This document shows positions 1-6,254 of a DNA stretch of 10,708 bases, piece by piece. Each line of letters begins with the position of its first letter. The stretch's first letter is position 1. The stretch comes from a virus (Duplodnaviria > Heunggongvirae > Uroviricota > Caudoviricetes). The notes under the pieces are model-generated. The model was not told where the DNA came from. It did not search any database and saw nothing but the letters and a program-made list of their open reading frames with translations. The stretch lies in the IMG/VR virus record IMGVR_UViG_2585427768_000002, positions 1-10,708 of that record; one strand, written 5' to 3'. The position numbers were made by a program, and so were the translations under genes.

Positions 1-82
1 CTGGCAACATTAACAGGCGTTCCATTGCTGGAATTGCACGTTCCGCCACCTCACGCAGTGCCTGGTAATTAATTTCGCTCAC
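1..82 (-). CDS. hypothetical prophage protein, N-terminal fragment (gene continues beyond window start); paralog of the next gene
   Basis: Reverse complement of 1..82 reads GTG AGC GAA ATT AAT TAC CAG... = MSEINYQALREVAERAIPAMERLLMLP. SD AAGGAGG lies 6 nt upstream of the GTG at 82..80. The GTG overlaps the TGA stop of the upstream gene (GTGA). N-terminus resembles that of the 79..759 gene (MSKIDYQELREAAEQ). Confidence 0.5.
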   Translation of the reverse strand, partial: MSEINYQALREVAERAIPAMERLLMLP

Positions 83-759
83 TGATTGCCTCCTTTGCGA
101 AGCTGGGCAGCAAAGTCAACTAACCACTCAGTCATTTCAACCTTCCCTACCAGGTCTGAACCAGGGTGCATACAGCAATCACTCTGCGCCGCTTTGAAAT
201 CCTTACACTCATATTCTTGGGCCACCAGATTTTTTGCAGCTTCTATAGCAGCATCCACCCCCTGCGCCCGGACTTCAGCCAGGAAAGCATCAGTGGTTGG
301 CGTTTCAGGTATCTGTCTCCTCATCCGTTCTATTGCATGATTGAACCCGAAGTCTTCCGCGAGAGATACGTCATCCATATTGTCATTGTCATCCTCAATA
401 TCCCGTGATTTTGGAATTGCAGACTTTATTCCCGCATTCTCAGCAGCCAGCGCCGCGCACTTGGCCTCAAGAGCGGCAACCACTTCCTGATGGTCTTTGT
501 ACTTAACGTATGAGCCGGAGATGTCATCACCTTCGGTGTTTAGCCATGCGTCATTGCAATTCACTGCGTAGGTTCTGATGCTGATGCTCTCCCGCCCCTG
601 ACAGACGCCAGGCCAGTCAATAAAGTATCCGCAATGCCTACCCTCAGACGTGCGCGCAGGATAAATGCCGTTATGACCCGGCAAAATATATGCTACCCAT
701 TCATCTTGCGTTGCCTGTTCCGCCGCCTCGCGCAGTTCTTGATAGTCAATCTTGCTCAC
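79..759 (-). CDS. hypothetical prophage protein (about 226 aa), coiled-coil-like central region
   Basis: ORF track lists 79..792, but the ATG at 792 has no SD and overlaps the upstream gene. GTG at 759..757 is preceded by AAGGAGG (6 nt spacing) and overlaps the upstream TGA stop as GTGA, so I set the start there. C-terminus ends ...LRKGGNQ. Confidence 0.6.
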   Translation of the reverse strand: MSKIDYQELREAAEQATQDEWVAYILPGHNGIYPARTSEGRHCGYFIDWPGVCQGRESISIRTYAVNCNDAWLNTEGDDISGSYVKYKDHQEVVAALEAKCAALAAENAGIKSAIPKSRDIEDDNDNMDDVSLAEDFGFNHAIERMRRQIPETPTTDAFLAEVRAQGVDAAIEAAKNLVAQEYECKDFKAAQSDCCMHPGSDLVGKVEMTEWLVDFAAQLRKGGNQ

Positions 760-1106
760 TGGTTGCCTCCTTTGCGAATCTGTTCCGCCCATTCTTCTAG
801 GGATTTCTCCGCATATTCACCGGACAGGCCATCAATCGGGTGTGGTTCATTAGCCAACTCTTCTTTCGCTGACAGAATCATGCGTGTAACGTCGAAAACT
901 TCACGTAAAGACTTATTGATAAATCCGTGATTGAAAGCCGCAGCAAGACGGCTTGCGGTATAGTTAATACCCTCGTTGCGAGCCTCAGCACGTACTTCAT
1001 CGAATTTACGCACCAGATACTCAGCATTTGTTTCATTCACTTTCAGATCTCGTGGTACACATTTCCCGCGAAGAAACCCTTCCATTTCGAAAACATTCAT
1101 GCGCAT
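756..1106 (-). CDS. hypothetical prophage protein (116 aa)
   Basis: Complete ORF. SD GGAG (plus-strand CTCC at 1115-1118) sits 8 nt upstream of ATG 1106..1104. C-terminus ...IRKGGNQ matches the C-terminus of the downstream paralog. Its stop overlaps the next gene's GTG start. Confidence 0.6.
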   Translation of the reverse strand: MRMNVFEMEGFLRGKCVPRDLKVNETNAEYLVRKFDEVRAEARNEGINYTASRLAAAFNHGFINKSLREVFDVTRMILSAKEELANEPHPIDGLSGEYAEKSLEEWAEQIRKGGNQ

Positions 1107-1143
1107 TTGCGTAACTCCGATAACTCGTTAAAACGTTCCATAA

Positions 1144-1341
1144 ACATCCCGTAACCGGATCCGCGATCTGGACAACTATAACAAGGCGCTGTTTGACGCC
1201 CTGACCCACGCGGGTGTGTGGGAAGACGACAGTCAGGTGAAAAGAATGCTGGTGGAGTGGGGACCGGTTATCCCGGAGGGGAAGGTCGAGATCACTATCA
1301 GTAAGTACGAAAAAGCGAGTTGCAAATTAGCAACTCGGTAA
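1144..1341 (+). pseudogene. rusA: rusA (Holliday junction resolvase) 3' remnant, N-terminally truncated
   Basis: Frame from 1144 to TAA at 1339-1341 translates TSRNRIRDLDNYNKALFDALTHAGVWEDDSQVKRMLVEWGPVIPEGKVEITISKYEK... This matches the recalled RusA C-terminal catalytic region (RDLDN...DALT.AG.W.DD.QV). No start codon or N-terminal half is present; a stop lies at 1141-1143 and the minus-strand gene 756..1106 occupies the upstream space. Confidence 0.55.
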
Positions 1342-1386
1342 CGGAATTGAGCAACACCCTAAATTTGGGTATTACCTCGTTAAAGA

Positions 1387-1406
1387 TACTGTATTTATGA
1401 ACAGTG
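1387..1406. promoter_or_regulatory. LexA-box-like palindrome (candidate SOS operator) upstream of the KilA-N gene
   Basis: Sequence taCTGTatttatgaACAGtg at 1387-1406 has the CTGT-N8-ACAG architecture with an AT-rich spacer, like the E. coli SOS box consensus TACTGTATATATATACAGTA. A possible -35 TTGATA (1412-1417) and -10 TAAGTT (1435-1440) lie just downstream. Confidence 0.45.
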
Positions 1407-1503
1407 TATCCTTGATAACTATTAAAAATCGCAGTAAGTTCATCCTGCATCAACGAAAAGGGAGTGCAGTCCCGCTCGTGGATAAAAATTTGTGGAGAAA
1501 CCA

Positions 1504-2319
1504 ATGAATCAGTTGCTTGTAATTGATGGCGTTTCTGTGCGCCAGTACTTCGAATCTAACTACTGTCTTAACGACCTTCAGAAAGCTGCTCTTCTTGCCG
1601 CTGGTGAGAATCGCTCCTCCCGTTCGCTGGAAGTTCACGAGTTTATGCGTCGTCCTGAAACGAAGGCTCTTGTGGAATTATTGGAAGAAGAAACTACGGG
1701 AGATTCCCGTAGTATTCCTGTCATCACCATTCAGGGGCGCAATGGTGGGACGTATGTCTGTAAAGAGCTGGTCTATGCATATGCAATGTGGATCAGCCCG
1801 GCATTCAGCTTAAAAGTGATACGTACTTTTGATGCGCTTCATAATTCATCACCAGAAGAAACCACATCCGACAAAATTAAATCCGGGGTCATTCTGCTTG
1901 AATCAGCAGCAAAGACTCTAAATCTGTCAAACTCCTCGAAACTTGGTGCATACCAGAAATTATCAAAGGTAGCTGGTCTTCCTGAACTTATGCCGATCTA
2001 TGCCATTGATGCACCTGCTGATGCGCCAGATGGTTCAAGCCGCCCTACGCTGTCGCTGAGTGCACTGCTGAAGCAGTATGGTATCCGCCTGACGGCTAAT
2101 CAGGCATATCACCAGATGGCGAAGCTGGGGATCGTTGAACAACGCGAACGATACAGCCGTACCGCGATTAACAACATCAAAAAATTCTGGTCGCTGACCG
2201 CGAAAGGCTGCATGTTCGGCAAGAACATCACCAGTCCTGCAAATCCGCGCGAGACGCAGCCGCATTTCTTCGAATCCCGATTTCCTGAGCTGTTAAAGCT
2301 GCTCGATACCGTTCATTGA
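1504..2319 (+). CDS. KilA-N domain protein (phage antirepressor/Roi-like DNA-binding protein)
   Basis: ORF track 1492..2319 begins at a GTG. ATG at 1504 has SD GGAG 7 nt upstream, so I set the start there. N-terminal region GRNGGTYVCKELVYAYAMWISPAFSLKVIRTFD matches the KilA-N core motif (G-T-[WY]-V-x-x-x-L-x-x-x-[YF]-A-x-W-[IL]-S-P-x-F) as recalled. Confidence 0.7.
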   Translation: MNQLLVIDGVSVRQYFESNYCLNDLQKAALLAAGENRSSRSLEVHEFMRRPETKALVELLEEETTGDSRSIPVITIQGRNGGTYVCKELVYAYAMWISPAFSLKVIRTFDALHNSSPEETTSDKIKSGVILLESAAKTLNLSNSSKLGAYQKLSKVAGLPELMPIYAIDAPADAPDGSSRPTLSLSALLKQYGIRLTANQAYHQMAKLGIVEQRERYSRTAINNIKKFWSLTAKGCMFGKNITSPANPRETQPHFFESRFPELLKLLDTVH

Positions 2320-2326
2320 GGTGACT

Positions 2327-3316
2327 GTGAGAGCACTACTGACCCCTGAAATTGCCCCGCGTATGGGGATCGTATTGTTCAGGCCAGGTTCAGAGCTGAT
2401 GCCCCTGTTTATGCAGGGGCGTGTCCTGCTGGAGCCTGAGCCGGAGCGTTATTCATCTTTCGCCAGTGGTGCCGTTCCGGCGGCATCACAACCGCTGGCG
2501 GATGATCCTGCCGTTCGGGCCGTGTTCCGCCATGAGGCAGTGATCCGTCGTGCTGGTGGCGTGGAATGTCTTGAAAGCTGGTTACTTCGTGAAAAAGGCT
2601 GCCAGTGGCCTCATTCCGGATGGCACAGCGAGAACATGACCACAATGCGACACGCTCCGGGTGCAATCCGTCTGTGCTGGCACTGCGATAACCAGCTGCG
2701 CGATCAGTTCACGGAACGGCTGGAATCAATGGCAACGGATAACTGTGCCCGCTGGGTGTTGTCTGTTGTGCGTCGGGATCTCGGTTTTGATGACAGTCAC
2801 GTTGTGACAATGCCGGAACTGTGCTGGTGGCTGATTCGTAATGACCTGGCGGATGCCTTACCGGAAAGTGCAGCCCGTAAGGCACTGAGATTACCGAAGC
2901 CTGTTGTGCCGTCTGTCACCCGGGAAAGTGACCTTGTGCCTTCGGTTCCTGCCACCAGCATCATCCAGGATAAAGCGAAAAAGGTGCTGGCGCTGAAAGT
3001 GGATCCGGAGTCGCCGGAGTCTTTTATGTTACGCCCCAAACGTCGCCGCTGGGTTAATGAAAAGTACACGCGCTGGGTTAAGACGCAGCCGTGTGCATGT
3101 TGTGGAAAGCCTGCTGATGATCCCCACCATCTGATAGGCCACGGTCAGGGGGGAATGGGTACAAAAGCGCATGATCTCTTTGTGTTGCCTTTGTGCAGAA
3201 AGCATCACGACGAGCTGCATGCGGATACCGTGGCATTTGAAGAGAAGTATGGCTCCCAGCTGGAGTTGATATTTCGTTTTATCGATCGTGCGCTGGCAAT
3301 TGGTGTGCTGGCCTGA
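2327..3316 (+). CDS. DUF968-like prophage protein with C-terminal HNH-like His/Cys motif (YdfU-like)
   Basis: ORF track 2321..3316. GTG at 2327 is 5 nt after SD GAGG (2318-2321), so it is the likelier start; 2321 remains possible. C-terminus CACCGKPADDPHHLIGHGQGGMGTKAHDLFVLPLCRKHHDELH is HNH-like. A second Cys/His cluster (CQWPH...CWHCDN) lies mid-protein. Family assignment is from memory of E. coli prophage DUF968 proteins. Confidence 0.65.
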   Translation: MRALLTPEIAPRMGIVLFRPGSELMPLFMQGRVLLEPEPERYSSFASGAVPAASQPLADDPAVRAVFRHEAVIRRAGGVECLESWLLREKGCQWPHSGWHSENMTTMRHAPGAIRLCWHCDNQLRDQFTERLESMATDNCARWVLSVVRRDLGFDDSHVVTMPELCWWLIRNDLADALPESAARKALRLPKPVVPSVTRESDLVPSVPATSIIQDKAKKVLALKVDPESPESFMLRPKRRRWVNEKYTRWVKTQPCACCGKPADDPHHLIGHGQGGMGTKAHDLFVLPLCRKHHDELHADTVAFEEKYGSQLELIFRFIDRALAIGVLA

Positions 3317-3333
3317 TTTTGTGGAGAAAGTTG

Positions 3334-3690
3334 ATGCGTGATATGTATGAAGTAATGGATCGTTGGGGAGCTTGGGCTGCTTCAGACAATAGCGGAGTGG
3401 ACTGGCAGCCGATAGCGGCTGGTTTCAAGGGACTTTTACCTCATGGCAAAAAGTCACGGATTCAGTGTGATGATGACGAAGGCATCATGATAGACAGTTG
3501 TGTGGCTCGGTTGAGAAGGTATAAACCAGAGGAATATGAGCTCATCATCGCCCACTTTGTTATCGGTATCTCATTACGTACTATTGCGAAGAAGAGAAAA
3601 TGCTCTGATGGCACAATTAGGAAGGAACTGCAAACTGCAATGGGGTTTGTTGACGGCTGTTTAGCAATGTTAGCTTATAGTATGGCATAA
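3334..3690 (+). CDS. late-gene antiterminator Q, short QuuD/phage-82-like type
   Basis: ATG at 3334 has SD GGAG 7 nt upstream (track start 3319 is a TTG). Protein MRDMYEVMDRWGAWAASDNSGVDWQPIAAGFKGL... resembles the short (about 120-130 aa) Q antiterminators of DLP12-type prophages as recalled. Position after the nin-region genes and before the tRNA/late region fits. Confidence 0.75.
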   Translation: MRDMYEVMDRWGAWAASDNSGVDWQPIAAGFKGLLPHGKKSRIQCDDDEGIMIDSCVARLRRYKPEEYELIIAHFVIGISLRTIAKKRKCSDGTIRKELQTAMGFVDGCLAMLAYSMA

Positions 3691-4884
3691 AAAATAAAAT
3701 AGATTTACTGCCGATTTTTCAAAAAAGACTGGGAACTGTTTATATCCAACGTAAATAAGGCCTCCATAAAACATGGCTGATGCGAGATATTTAACAGTTC
3801 TCATCCTTTTTTTAGCTTTATCAATCAAACCTGTAATGCTACTCTTAATACTATCTGCATTATCTTTGATTTCTTTATTTTCTTCAAACTTTAAATACTT
3901 ATCGAAAGCGGACTCCACTCGAGAACGTAAGTTGTCGAATGTTTCATTGAATATCTCAATAGAAATGTAATTGACTTTTTTTATCATCCAAAGTCCTGCG
4001 ATAATCAATATTGCTTCGGTTGTTTCATTAGCCTTCACTAAGCCACCAGCAGCTATTAATGCACCGGGAATAGTCAATGCTTTTGTCTGATTAGATGATA
4101 TGAATTCGTTAATTTTACTCGTGAACTCAAGATTTTTCTCATCGAGTTCGTTAAGAATTTTATTTACAGAAAACCTCTTTGTGTAAATCTCATATAGTTC
4201 ATCATATTTTTTCCTGACGAGTTCAGTAGAGTTAAGCAAGTCAAAGAAATTGAACGTACCATTTGCTTTAAATACTTCGTTTATGGCTGAGCGTATAACG
4301 AGCTTGCGCTCGCTTTTGTGTAAATCATTGATTTTTATTGTGTCGAGAAGCTCCTTTATAATTTCATATTTAAGAGACGAGTTCGATAAGCGATTAATCT
4401 CGCTATATTGTAAAAAATGCGTGAGTTCGACTGTATAACTTTTGTCTTCATTGGTGAAAAATAAGACAGAGCAGTCACTGTTATGATGATCAGCAATTAA
4501 TGAAAGGATATCTTTCCACATAAAGAAAATATGGATTTTTTCGATGCTTTCATTCTTAGAAGTAGGGAGTATTAACGGCGTTCCGATGATATAATTTTTC
4601 GGAAGAGCGTTTTGGGTGTTTACTCTAGACCAAAAAGACTCAACATTCTCATAAATTATAGCGTCATCCCAAGATGAAGCTTGGCGATCTAGCCAAATTT
4701 CATTATTTTCGATGCAGGTTGTTGCCTTTTTATAACCTATAGATTGTAACAGTCTAATTATTTCAGAACTATTTACAATAACAATGCTTTCTTCAAGACT
4801 TATGACAGTGTAGTAGCCCTCAACTCTGCTTGAGGCTCCGTTAATAATCTGCGCTAATCTTGATAAGTCATCAGCAATTGTCAT
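3670..4884 (-). CDS. hypothetical membrane-associated protein (404 aa): soluble N-terminal domain plus C-terminal hydrophobic helices; candidate effector of a two-gene module
   Basis: Complete ORF. ATG at 4884..4882 lies 2 nt after the stop of the upstream gene (TAA-TA-ATG), indicating translational coupling. Hydrophobic segments at about aa 268-303 (ALTIPGALIAAGGLV...AILIIAGLWMI) and about aa 365-400 (YLASAMFYGGLIYVGY...). Very AT-rich, with AGA and ATA codons. No family recognised. Confidence 0.75.
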   Translation of the reverse strand: MTIADDLSRLAQIINGASSRVEGYYTVISLEESIVIVNSSEIIRLLQSIGYKKATTCIENNEIWLDRQASSWDDAIIYENVESFWSRVNTQNALPKNYIIGTPLILPTSKNESIEKIHIFFMWKDILSLIADHHNSDCSVLFFTNEDKSYTVELTHFLQYSEINRLSNSSLKYEIIKELLDTIKINDLHKSERKLVIRSAINEVFKANGTFNFFDLLNSTELVRKKYDELYEIYTKRFSVNKILNELDEKNLEFTSKINEFISSNQTKALTIPGALIAAGGLVKANETTEAILIIAGLWMIKKVNYISIEIFNETFDNLRSRVESAFDKYLKFEENKEIKDNADSIKSSITGLIDKAKKRMRTVKYLASAMFYGGLIYVGYKQFPVFFEKSAVNLFYFLCHTIS

Positions 4885-4886
4885 TA

Positions 4887-6062
4887 TTAGCTGTCTCTAT
4901 ATCTTTTGAGTTCATCATAATTTGCCTGACTCAATTTTATCACAATTTCGCATTTGTTGTCAGTGAGAATTACAGGCTTATTTGACTTTTCGTCTCCAAT
5001 AGCTCCACGCATTATTTTCAACTTAAAATTATTGTCGTTATCTGCCACTTCAATTGTAAGCGCGCTTTCAGCTGCTTTAGGAGTTGGTTCAAATTGAGGG
5101 TCAATCTGGAAACCATTAAGATTAACAAAATCGACAAACGTTCCCTTACATTTGTGTGAATCAGTCAGGCATGAGTCAATTATTTTTGAAATATCCTCTA
5201 TCTTAACGGACTTATTTCCGTGTTTATCTTTTGATTTTTTTTCCAGTAAGGATTTAACTTCATTGTCAATAGTATCACGCAGTACACGACCGAGTGAGTT
5301 TTTACTAGCAAAAATATCTATAGCACTGAATAATTGCTGAATGCTTCTTTTATTGTCCGAATCATGTCGGCAACCTAATGAGTCTTTGAAAAAATCGCTT
5401 TTAGATTTACCTTGCAAGAAATGTACATATGAGTCACCCTTGTTTTCTGGATAACTGGCTTCGAATAAAGTTAAATCGAACATCGCAGCCTGCCGTAAGG
5501 CATCGGTATTAATTGGATTTAATCTTGTTGGGGTCAACTTATCCGAATCAAAGTCATAGGCGCTTTGTTTATCAACCATTACGATTAGAAGTTTCCCCAA
5601 ATCCTCTGGTTCGGTAGACTTATAGTGGATGAAAACAACGCTCCCCCCCTGAAGTTGGGCAACTCTCGATTCGTTATTAGCATTATGTTTAAGCTTCTCT
5701 ATTATAGCTCTAGATAAATCAATGAATTCATTATTTTTATTAATGTATTTTTTTAGGATCGTAGGAATGGATGAAGGGTTGTGATCTGAGTCTAGGAAGT
5801 TATGAAATTTGTTTTTTCGGCTAAATTTTTTCTCAATTCTGGTTATGAATTCAGATGTGACTTCATTTTTTAGATCCCAAACTTCACCTAATCGATAATC
5901 AAATGCTCTTGAATCATTTTTTTCAAGATTTGCTGTTACAGCACCAATAGGAAAGTACGATTGTTTGCCCAGCACTACAACATGAGGCGTGGCACCGCAT
6001 TTATCGCAAGCTACAGTTGGGTCGTCAAGAACATTGCCACATTCTAAACAAGTTATATCCAT
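4887..6062 (-). CDS. zinc-ribbon protein with NdpA/YejK-like (NA37 family) nucleoid-associated domain (391 aa)
   Basis: Complete ORF. ATG at 6062..6060 with SD GGGA about 7 nt upstream. N-terminal C5-x2-C8-x10-C19-x2-C22 zinc ribbon. Residues 139-147 GGSVVFIHY, 212-220 YVHFLQGKS and SDFFKDSLG align with recalled YejK motifs ([31 protein letters not shown]). AT-rich. Confidence 0.8.
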   Translation of the reverse strand: MDITCLECGNVLDDPTVACDKCGATPHVVVLGKQSYFPIGAVTANLEKNDSRAFDYRLGEVWDLKNEVTSEFITRIEKKFSRKNKFHNFLDSDHNPSSIPTILKKYINKNNEFIDLSRAIIEKLKHNANNESRVAQLQGGSVVFIHYKSTEPEDLGKLLIVMVDKQSAYDFDSDKLTPTRLNPINTDALRQAAMFDLTLFEASYPENKGDSYVHFLQGKSKSDFFKDSLGCRHDSDNKRSIQQLFSAIDIFASKNSLGRVLRDTIDNEVKSLLEKKSKDKHGNKSVKIEDISKIIDSCLTDSHKCKGTFVDFVNLNGFQIDPQFEPTPKAAESALTIEVADNDNNFKLKIMRGAIGDEKSNKPVILTDNKCEIVIKLSQANYDELKRYRDS

Positions 6063-6087
6063 TATATATCCCGAATTATAAGAATGA

Positions 6088-6115
6088 ATTTTTATGTGGC
6101 TGAAAATTCTATCAA
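6088..6115 (-). promoter_or_regulatory. candidate sigma70 promoter for the minus-strand two-gene operon
   Basis: On the minus strand: TTGATA (plus coords 6115..6110), 16-nt spacer, AAAAAT (6093..6088). A TATAAT hexamer (6080..6075) lies directly before the SD. Hexamers identified by eye only. Confidence 0.25.
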
Positions 6116-6182
6116 AACACTAACGCGTACGCAAAAAGTATTGTATTGTGTTAAGAGTGGTTACTTCGCCACACAACTTAAC

Positions 6183-6204
6183 CCCGCCACTGAGCGGGTT
6201 TTTT
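6183..6204 (+). terminator. intrinsic terminator-like hairpin (plus strand)
   Basis: Stem CCCGC (6183-6187) / GCGGG (6194-6198), 6-nt loop, followed by TTTTTT (6199-6204). No plus-strand gene lies immediately upstream. Confidence 0.5.
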
Positions 6205-6254
6205 GTACCTGTAAACTTGGTGCAGTACAGTAAACACGCTGGTGGTCGTGAATA

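Follow-up and report, generated by a model that had tools for sequence, protein, structure and literature searches.

A rusA remnant in a lambdoid prophage as the probable scar of a deletion ending at a recurrent TA breakpoint

The truncated rusA gene in the window (the whole 10,708-nucleotide stretch of phage DNA analyzed here) is very probably the scar of one illegitimate deletion of about 8.0 kb whose rusA end lies at a recurrent TA site. The deletion would have joined a TA in yfdR, a minus-strand gene of the early-left operon, to the TA between codons 69 and 70 of rusA, a plus-strand gene of the early-right operon. The rusA end of the deletion is non-random: at least 24 different deletions in other E. 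coli prophages, running leftward or rightward, also end at this one TA. As a remnant it is unexceptional, a kind of pseudogene already annotated by RefSeq; the recurrent breakpoint is the part worth following, and no description of the TA breakpoint or hotspot was found in the published literature. The features of the window are collected in Table 1.

Table 1. Features of the window on either side of the deletion joint
Feature	Position	Strand	Basis or remark
Ead/Ea22-like early-left gene	79..792	-	Pfam PF13935, E=1.8e-27
Intact 116-aa early-left gene	756..1106	-	RefSeq: hypothetical or 'YfdS family phage-associated'
yfdR' remnant: last 18 codons YGMFMERFNELSELRKCA and stop of the 178-aa 5'-deoxynucleotidase YfdR	1097..1153	-	YfdR C-terminus identity
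Deletion joint, TA common to both parents	1152..1153		Alignment, BLAST end-points, junction listings
rusA remnant, 62 codons and stop, without start codon	1153..1341	+	Pfam, tblastn, 1Q8R alignment
Residual 41-aa ORF, GTG start	1216..1341	+	Without D74/D76 equivalents
Chi sequence GCTGGTGG inside the rusA remnant, 96 bp right of the joint	1249..1256	+	Read from sequence
KilA-N domain regulator gene, first intact gene right of the scar	1492..2319	+	Pfam PF04383, PHROG 129
DUF968 / HNH-endonuclease-like gene	2321..3316	+	PF06147, E=1.9e-81; PHROG 96 'HNH endonuclease', E=2e-176
Antiterminator Q gene	3319..3690	+	Pfam PF06530
Two genes between Q and the late region (404-aa and 391-aa proteins)	3670-6062	-	PHROG 5023, PHROG 3767
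AraC-family regulator, 237 aa	6661-7374	+	Pfam
tRNA cluster: tRNA-Met(CAT), tRNA-Arg(TCG), tRNA-Arg(TCT)	7403-7652	+	ARAGORN
Esterase, 653 aa, DUF1737, SASA and DUF6645 domains	8141-10102	+	Pfam

Codons 70–131 of a 131-residue RusA occupy positions 1153–1338 of the plus strand, and the stop codon follows at 1339–1341. The 65-residue stretch translated from 1144 matches the RusA profile PF05866 (E=1.4e-11; 45.5 bits against a cut-off of 22.8), although only positions 78–123 of the 124 in the profile, its final third, are covered. When the full-length RusA of PhiR49_1 was compared with the window by tblastn, as an earlier note on this DNA had proposed, residues 70–131 aligned at 1153–1338 with 100% identity, whereas residues 1–69 were absent from the window in all frames; the N-terminal half of rusA also had no match to the window at the DNA level. 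The claim of that note that rusA is truncated at its 5' end and lacks a start is thereby borne out, 62 codons are retained where it had estimated roughly 55–65 residues, and no frame of the window conceals a full-length gene. The frame of the remnant, read from 1060 to 1341, translates as ...ITR-stop-NVP-stop-TSRNRIRDLDNYNKALFDALTHAGVWEDDSQVKRMLVEWGPVIPEGKVEITISKYEKASCKLATR-stop, with the upstream stops at 1129–1131 and 1141–1143. From 1152 onward, the DNA is 99.8–100% identical to the intact rusA of PhiR49_1, SfIV, and E. coli NCCP15648.

The remnant can be aligned with residues 67–116 of the E. coli (DLP12) RusA structure 1Q8R, to which it is homologous. In this alignment, D74, D76, and D95 of the 131-residue homologue fall on chain residues 70, 72, and 91, and the equivalents of D70, D72, and D91, which we take from the RusA literature to be the catalytic aspartates of the E. 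coli enzyme, are all present. The acidic catalytic cluster is thus kept, as had been claimed. Compared with functional rusA genes, however, the remnant holds 62 of 131 codons and is without a start codon, the N-terminal half, or a promoter-like site, none having been found at window positions 900–1600. It therefore matches the family profile and retains the aspartate equivalents but does not form a complete ORF of about 120–131 residues with a start. The first in-frame start is a GTG at 1216, and the short ORF that it opens is probably functionless. Because the N-terminal half and the expression signals are missing, resolvase activity would not be expected, and we regard the remnant as a pseudogene rather than a resolvase gene.

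Two further aspects of the rusA region may be recorded here. The Chi sequence within the remnant is oriented such that it would be read by RecBCD arriving from the right. The 3' tail of rusA occurs in two forms: the window shares ...EKASCKLATR with PhiR49_1 and NCCP15648, and most other copies end in ...EKPAGAAA or ...EKTAGAAA; the region of alternative tails corresponds to about 1317–1341 of the window and is seen also in loci L003 and L138. The tail found in the window contains an 11-nt hairpin (CGAGTTGCAAA/TTAGCAACTCG) that is terminator-like on the minus strand and is followed by a 150-bp spacer, which is missing with the other tail form.

The position of the joint is given consistently by several comparisons. 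A BLAST search of window positions 700–1700 against phages split cleanly at query position 451/453: the right part (1152–1700) is 99.8% identical to SfIV and PhiR49_1, both of which have an intact rusA, and the left part, ending at 1150–1153, corresponds to int-proximal early-left DNA of lambdoid phages, Stx phages among them. In a comparison with 5426 complete E. coli genomes, homology on the left runs as far as 1153 and that on the right sets in at 1152 (a 254/253 split with a 2-bp overlap). In the alignment, the window tracks yfdR to ...CATCCCGTA and rusA from TAACCGGATCC...; with a slash marking the joint, the parents read ...CCCGTA/GGC in yfdR and ...CCGGATA/ACCGG in rusA, and the homology between them at the joint is the 2-bp TA only. 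On the left, the 18 residues encoded by the minus strand at 1097–1153 are identical to the C terminus of an intact YfdR (locus L166), and the neighboring 116-residue early-left gene lies directly downstream of intact yfdR in all 10 of the 10 places returned by an exact protein look-up. The span of 1144–1341 assigned earlier to the remnant thus contains a real remnant, but rusA begins only at 1152/1153, and the codons at 1144–1152 are antisense of yfdR. The breakpoint had been predicted to lie at 1107–1145; alignment with intact rusA places it 7 bp further right. Nor is the N-terminal half of rusA replaced by the start of the minus-strand block, as had been supposed, because that block is itself truncated.

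The early-left arm also carries a repeat of about 26–45 bp, GCTCACTG(A/G)TTGCCTCCTTTGCGAA, at positions 61–105 and 741–790, which are the ends of successive minus-strand early-left genes. The sequence ...RKGGNQ forms the C terminus of two early-left proteins, and the N-termini encoded by the downstream genes are similar. The repeat looks like a linker between tandem Ea22-type modules.

Comparison with intact relatives identifies the event as an internal deletion, because the left arm sits about 8 kb upstream of rusA, in the same orientation, in these prophages. In NCCP15648 (L165), window positions 998–1153 (98.7% identity) and 1152 onward are separated by 8,011 bp and share one orientation. 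In AR_0013 (L005), in which the left flank is 100% identical to that of the window, the distance between the two TAs is 8,310 bp. Window positions 1152–10539 are 99.98–100% identical to the prophage beside yecN/DUF72 in NCCP15648, FORC_043, O104:H4 2009EL strains, and others, and rusA is intact in the NCCP15648, FORC_043, and O104:H4 2009EL-type prophages. The flanks of the joint are thus collinear with intact prophages, and both yfdR (18 codons left) and rusA (62 codons left) are cut. Against this reading, no prophage combining the left and right alleles of the window was found among the complete genomes.

The earlier note had viewed the joint as a recombination or insertion breakpoint and as a sign of nin-region mosaicism. 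It is a recombination breakpoint, but a foreign minus-strand block inserted into rusA, or exchanged as a mosaic nin-region module, is a very improbable source for it. Such an origin would accommodate the observation that the two flanks are nearest to different prophage alleles, the left being 100% identical to the AR_0013 type and the right 100% identical to the NCCP15648 type; mosaicism is, moreover, general among lambdoid prophages. However, the left block (yfdR, the 116-residue gene, and ea22) is what prophages of this kind ordinarily carry as their early-left arm, yfdR is truncated at the joint, and the window has neither a second junction nor a displaced N-terminal half of rusA. A 2-bp overlap is also not what homologous exchange leaves, and the collinearity with L165 and L005 contradicts both insertion and exchange.

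The lost interval contains the rest of yfdR, yfdQ, a yfdP-like gene, an XRE/cI-like repressor gene, a cro-like gene, ymfL, and rha. It also contains an O-like replication gene, yfdN/perC, a Dam-type methylase gene, a lexA-like gene, and rusA codons 1–69. With repressor, cro, and replication genes among the losses, the prophage is defective, and the element would no longer be repressible, inducible, or able to replicate. Since the interval spans the 5' parts of both early operons, both are without their 5' ends, and the two remaining blocks of early genes, Q included, have probably lost their promoters. Judged by the gene order in L165, the early promoter that would have served the KilA-N, DUF968/HNH, and Q genes is probably gone.

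The 404-residue and 391-residue proteins encoded between Q and the late region are named 'anti-phage protein' and 'nucleoid-associated anti-phage protein' in some RefSeq records; the 391-residue protein belongs to the NA37 nucleoid-associated family, the 404-residue protein has no Pfam match, and PADLOC gave no match for either gene. The two genes are convergent, and that for the 404-residue protein shares 21 bp at its 3' end with the 3' end of Q. The first tRNA of the cluster (CAT) is called tRNA-Ile in the RefSeq annotation of an identical prophage, presumably reflecting a lysidine-modified CAT anticodon. The AraC-family regulator and esterase genes are 100% identical to those of the EAEC/O104:H4-type prophage. 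The last 169 bp of the window (10540–10708) have no match to the NCCP15648-type prophage, which marks a further mosaic boundary near the DUF1378/DUF826 genes.

DLP12, Rac, and Qin are cryptic lambdoid prophages made by internal deletions. The prophage of the window resembles these 'grounded' elements in having lost its immunity and replication modules while keeping nin-region genes, Q, and lysis and accessory genes. It differs from them in that both end-points of its deletion are known at base resolution, one being recurrent.

The evidence for recurrence comes from scans for joints at the same rusA position. We count 24 distinct junction types at the rusA TA: nine in which the C-terminal half is kept, six in which the N-terminal half is kept (both at the DNA level), and nine more seen as fusion proteins; the scans see only the allele with ...TAACCGGATCCGCG..., hotspot frequencies are allele-specific, and where junction types share a partner site, some could stem from a single event that recombination has spread. 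The pattern 'non-A + TAACCGGATCCGCGATCTGGAC', which finds joints that keep the C-terminal half, returned nine loci with six left partners in IMG/VR, with further copies in metagenomes. The mirror pattern, ...TTTCCTCCGGATA followed by non-A, returned seven IMG/VR loci with six right partners. Five of these are positions inside the KilA-N gene, the lysis region, a J-like tail gene, a tail-fibre gene, and an IS66-like element that is truncated; the sixth is of unknown origin. A scan of genome contigs gave no match. Among proteins, the 62-residue remnant was found in 12 fusions whose junction falls immediately before N70; the partner is new in nine of these, and the intact partner genes have the TA at the join in 12 of 12. 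Over all junction types, the intact partner sequence has a TA at the join in each of the 21 recoverable cases among the 24. Two metagenome loci retrieved in the scans (L150 and L151) were rejected as junctions: they belong to an IS481-like transposase gene of a GC-rich organism and share 23 nt with rusA because both encode the peptide LNRIRDLD.

Neighboring positions of rusA do not behave in this way. Control scans 18 bp upstream, 27 bp downstream, and one base to the left gave 0 matches each, and the 20 matches to a control 10 bp downstream were all one synonymous SNP and included no junctions. The sequence beyond the TA is never retained, as GGATAA followed by foreign DNA and foreign DNA followed by ATAACC were both absent. 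Of 120 loci sampled without bias by way of the rusA 3' end, 109 were intact, a few were internal slippage variants, and the one true junction lay at the hotspot TA, with GGATA shared with a lexA-like gene. The rusA TA thus combines a single base-precise end-point and many unrelated partners with an excess over neighboring positions. Non-hotspot joints exist as a minority: among fusion proteins of the same allele, 12 of 16 are joined at N70 and four elsewhere. In P0008, P0036, and P0057, short deletions fuse the neighboring lexA-like gene to rusA at about RusA residues 31, 80, and 87. From the counts of places matched by whole rusA and by each of its halves in the 5426 complete genomes (2974, 2932, and 2947), we estimate roughly 2905 intact copies, about 27 remnants with only the C-terminal half, and about 42 with only the N-terminal half.

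All identifiable partners lie in their natural prophage orientation, and no locus carrying both rusA halves was found; the events are therefore deletions extending leftward or rightward from the TA rather than insertions or inversions. It is highly improbable that these junctions are not independent and that a few ancestral truncations have been reshuffled by homologous recombination with no hotspot involved. Some identical joints are indeed shared (L012/L013, L015/L017, L016/L147/L149, and L139/L141/L145), and these are probably single inherited events. Homologous recombination, however, cannot create a new partner abutting the same base, whereas 24 partners abut the TA, both halves of rusA occur as remnants, and the control positions yielded no junctions.

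The yfdR–TA–rusA joint of the window is itself found once more, in one of the 5426 complete genomes, HCM-25C-3, which carries it in a prophage at thrW. Over 160 nt on each side of the joint, the window has one set of intact alleles and HCM-25C-3 another, the differences including SNPs at positions −21, −30, and +80 relative to the joint. With differences this close (21 bp away on the left side, 80 bp on the right), the two copies are accounted for more readily by two independent events that used the same two TAs than by one event followed by recombination. RefSeq lists the HCM-25C-3 gene (ACZ5XB_RS18380) as a RusA pseudogene 'missing N-terminus', and this gene and a second partial RusA pseudogene, AC9VTE_RS20065 of AB56, have the same rusA truncation point as the window, in other prophage backgrounds and with other flanking alleles. 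AB56 and ETEC4073, both complete genomes, differ from the window in that their left partners are inside the O-like gene (...GGGTAAC/CGG in ETEC4073 and, 127 bp further on, ...CAGTTA/ACCGG in AB56). That the joint of the window is an artefact of assembly or sequencing, either a chimeric contig or a frameshift hiding a full-length rusA, deserves almost no credence: although window positions 900–1400 are matched over 80% or more of their length in none of the 5426 complete genomes, the same joint is present in HCM-25C-3 (98.3% identity over 121 bp), 2-bp overlaps are not used by assemblers for joining contigs, the N-terminal half of rusA is in no frame, and many analogous joints exist in independent assemblies.

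The hotspot TA is the center of CCGG-A-TA-A-CCGG (CCGGATAACCGG), which occurs once in the 41-kb NCCP15648 locus; the variant alleles GGACAACC and GGATAACAGG were seen among haplotypes. The partner TAs have flanks (±6 nt) of 67% GC compared with 48% for 1528 prophage TAs (Mann–Whitney, p=4e-8). They are enriched in G at −2 (13 of 21), G at −1 (11 of 21), and C at −4 (11 of 21), amounting to a weak C-N-G-G-TA, and a few share more with the rusA site, namely TAAC, TAACCG, GGATA, or TA-CCGG with one base skipped.

The site could form a local hairpin, TCCGG/ATAA/CCGGA, with a 5-bp stem that is weak (z = −1.4). In addition, a 10-nt inverted copy, CCGGTTATCC, of the core GGATAACCGG lies 105 nt downstream at window positions 1264–1273 (in L001, the two are at 2998–3007 and 3113–3122), and the complementarity between core and copy reaches about 17 nt with one bulge. 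A hairpin or cruciform was rejected as the cause of the recurrence, given the unremarkable stem and the absence of compensatory changes or covariation between core and inverted copy across 26 haplotypes. In one fusion protein, P0053, the RusA part ends in ...WGPV, at the TA of the inverted copy.

Mechanistically, a break at the rusA site might leave TA on both 3' ends, as a 2-nt staggered cut would, and each end might then be joined to, or primed at, a distant TA by microhomology with deletion of the intervening DNA. These two steps are put forward together and tentatively, as the most likely of the schemes considered, though one that falls short of probable. The observations behind it are the fixed, base-precise end, the TA in both parents, the restriction to deletions, and the GC-rich partners. 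It is also conceivable, though on balance unlikely, that the TA in CCGGATAACCGG is the cleavage site of a sequence-directed DNA-breaking activity that has repeatedly grounded lambdoid prophages. Such an activity could come from the phage, from the host, or from a competing element. A phage-encoded example could be the DUF968/HNH protein, for which no sequence relative was found in the PDB; encoded two genes downstream of rusA, it is a candidate breaker by proximity only.

Illegitimate-recombination hotspots with one fixed end are classically rolling-circle origin nick sites and strong gyrase cleavage sites. The rusA site is like these hotspots in having one base-precise end, one variable end, and very short homology at the joins. 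It is unlike them in that neither a replication origin nor a nick-site consensus nor the 4-bp stagger typical of gyrase suits it, the overlap being exactly the 2-bp TA. To our knowledge, a 2-bp TA overlap with these flanks is also not accounted for by RusA cleavage at 5'-CC, Din-invertase crossover sites, lox/FRT/dif, IS630 (CTAG) or IS30 targets, or REP/RAYT, any more than by the 4-bp stagger of gyrase or by rolling-circle nick sites.

A doubtful but serious alternative to breakage is template switching, in which a nascent strand with ...GG(N)TA at its end comes off its template and primes again at a similar sequence, the rusA site being a favored pause or landing site by virtue of its small hairpin or of a bound protein. 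This would suit the microhomology, which always includes TA and is sometimes longer (TAAC, TAACCG, or GGATA) or continues past a 1-nt bulge (TA-CCGG). It would likewise suit the left flanks of the partners, which resemble that of the hotspot at −4 (C), −2 (G), and −1 (G), and the finding of deletions without inversions. However, the jumps of 0.3 to about 30 kb are far for slippage, the hairpin is unremarkable, and the preference for this TA over some 1500 others in the prophage is left unexplained.

We consider it rather improbable that the joints were made by a TA-specific transposase or serine-recombinase-like enzyme that cuts the pseudo-palindrome and pseudo-sites with a 2-bp stagger and rejoins them conservatively, or that they stem from a vanished TA-duplicating element whose excision produced flanking deletions. 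An enzyme of this kind would account for a crossover that is base-precise at a palindromic dinucleotide, with TA at 21 of 21 recoverable joins, and for the use of both halves of the site as ends. The roughly symmetric, GC-rich partner consensus around TA and the TAs in yfdR and in the C terminus of the O-like gene, each of which seems to have been used twice independently, point in the same direction. Yet neither the more than 130 loci inspected nor the targeted scans showed a mobile element at the site, no candidate recombinase was found, and the partner sites have no long common motif. Inversions were also not seen, although the palindromic core should allow them, and the only IS beside a joint, the IS66-like element of FORC_031, is itself truncated by the deletion.

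Insertion sequences were considered separately and rejected. Scans with GGATAAD and GGATAB for an IS at the site gave one SNP allele (L138), six deletion joints, and no element followed by the downstream C-terminal half. No IS lies near the joint in the window. The IS66-like element beside the FORC_031 joint is 5'-truncated and hence a partner of the deletion rather than its cause. In the complete E. coli genome FORC_031 (L139, 4001–6976) and in L141 and L145, the N-terminal half of rusA is joined at the same TA to the interior of this IS66-family element, which is without its left end. Beyond the element lie an integrase gene truncated at its 5' end and an AVAST type 2 (avs2) gene.

Taken alone, the rusA remnant shows merely that the prophage is defective. 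With the repressor, replication genes, and early promoters lost, the remaining genes, including Q, lysis, tRNA, AraC-type regulator, esterase, and putative anti-phage genes, are now fixed chromosomal cargo. The decay of prophages is commonly seen as a matter of random deletions; here, two dozen independent deletions end at one dinucleotide of a conserved phage gene, which implies that a specific DNA-breaking or strand-switching process acts on a widespread family of E. coli prophages. If TA-directed breaking is correct, it would constitute a site-specific route to the grounding of prophages, as opposed to random decay. Identification of the activity, if achieved, would account for one path to prophage domestication and would provide a defined 12-bp site at which to study microhomology-mediated joining in E. 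coli.
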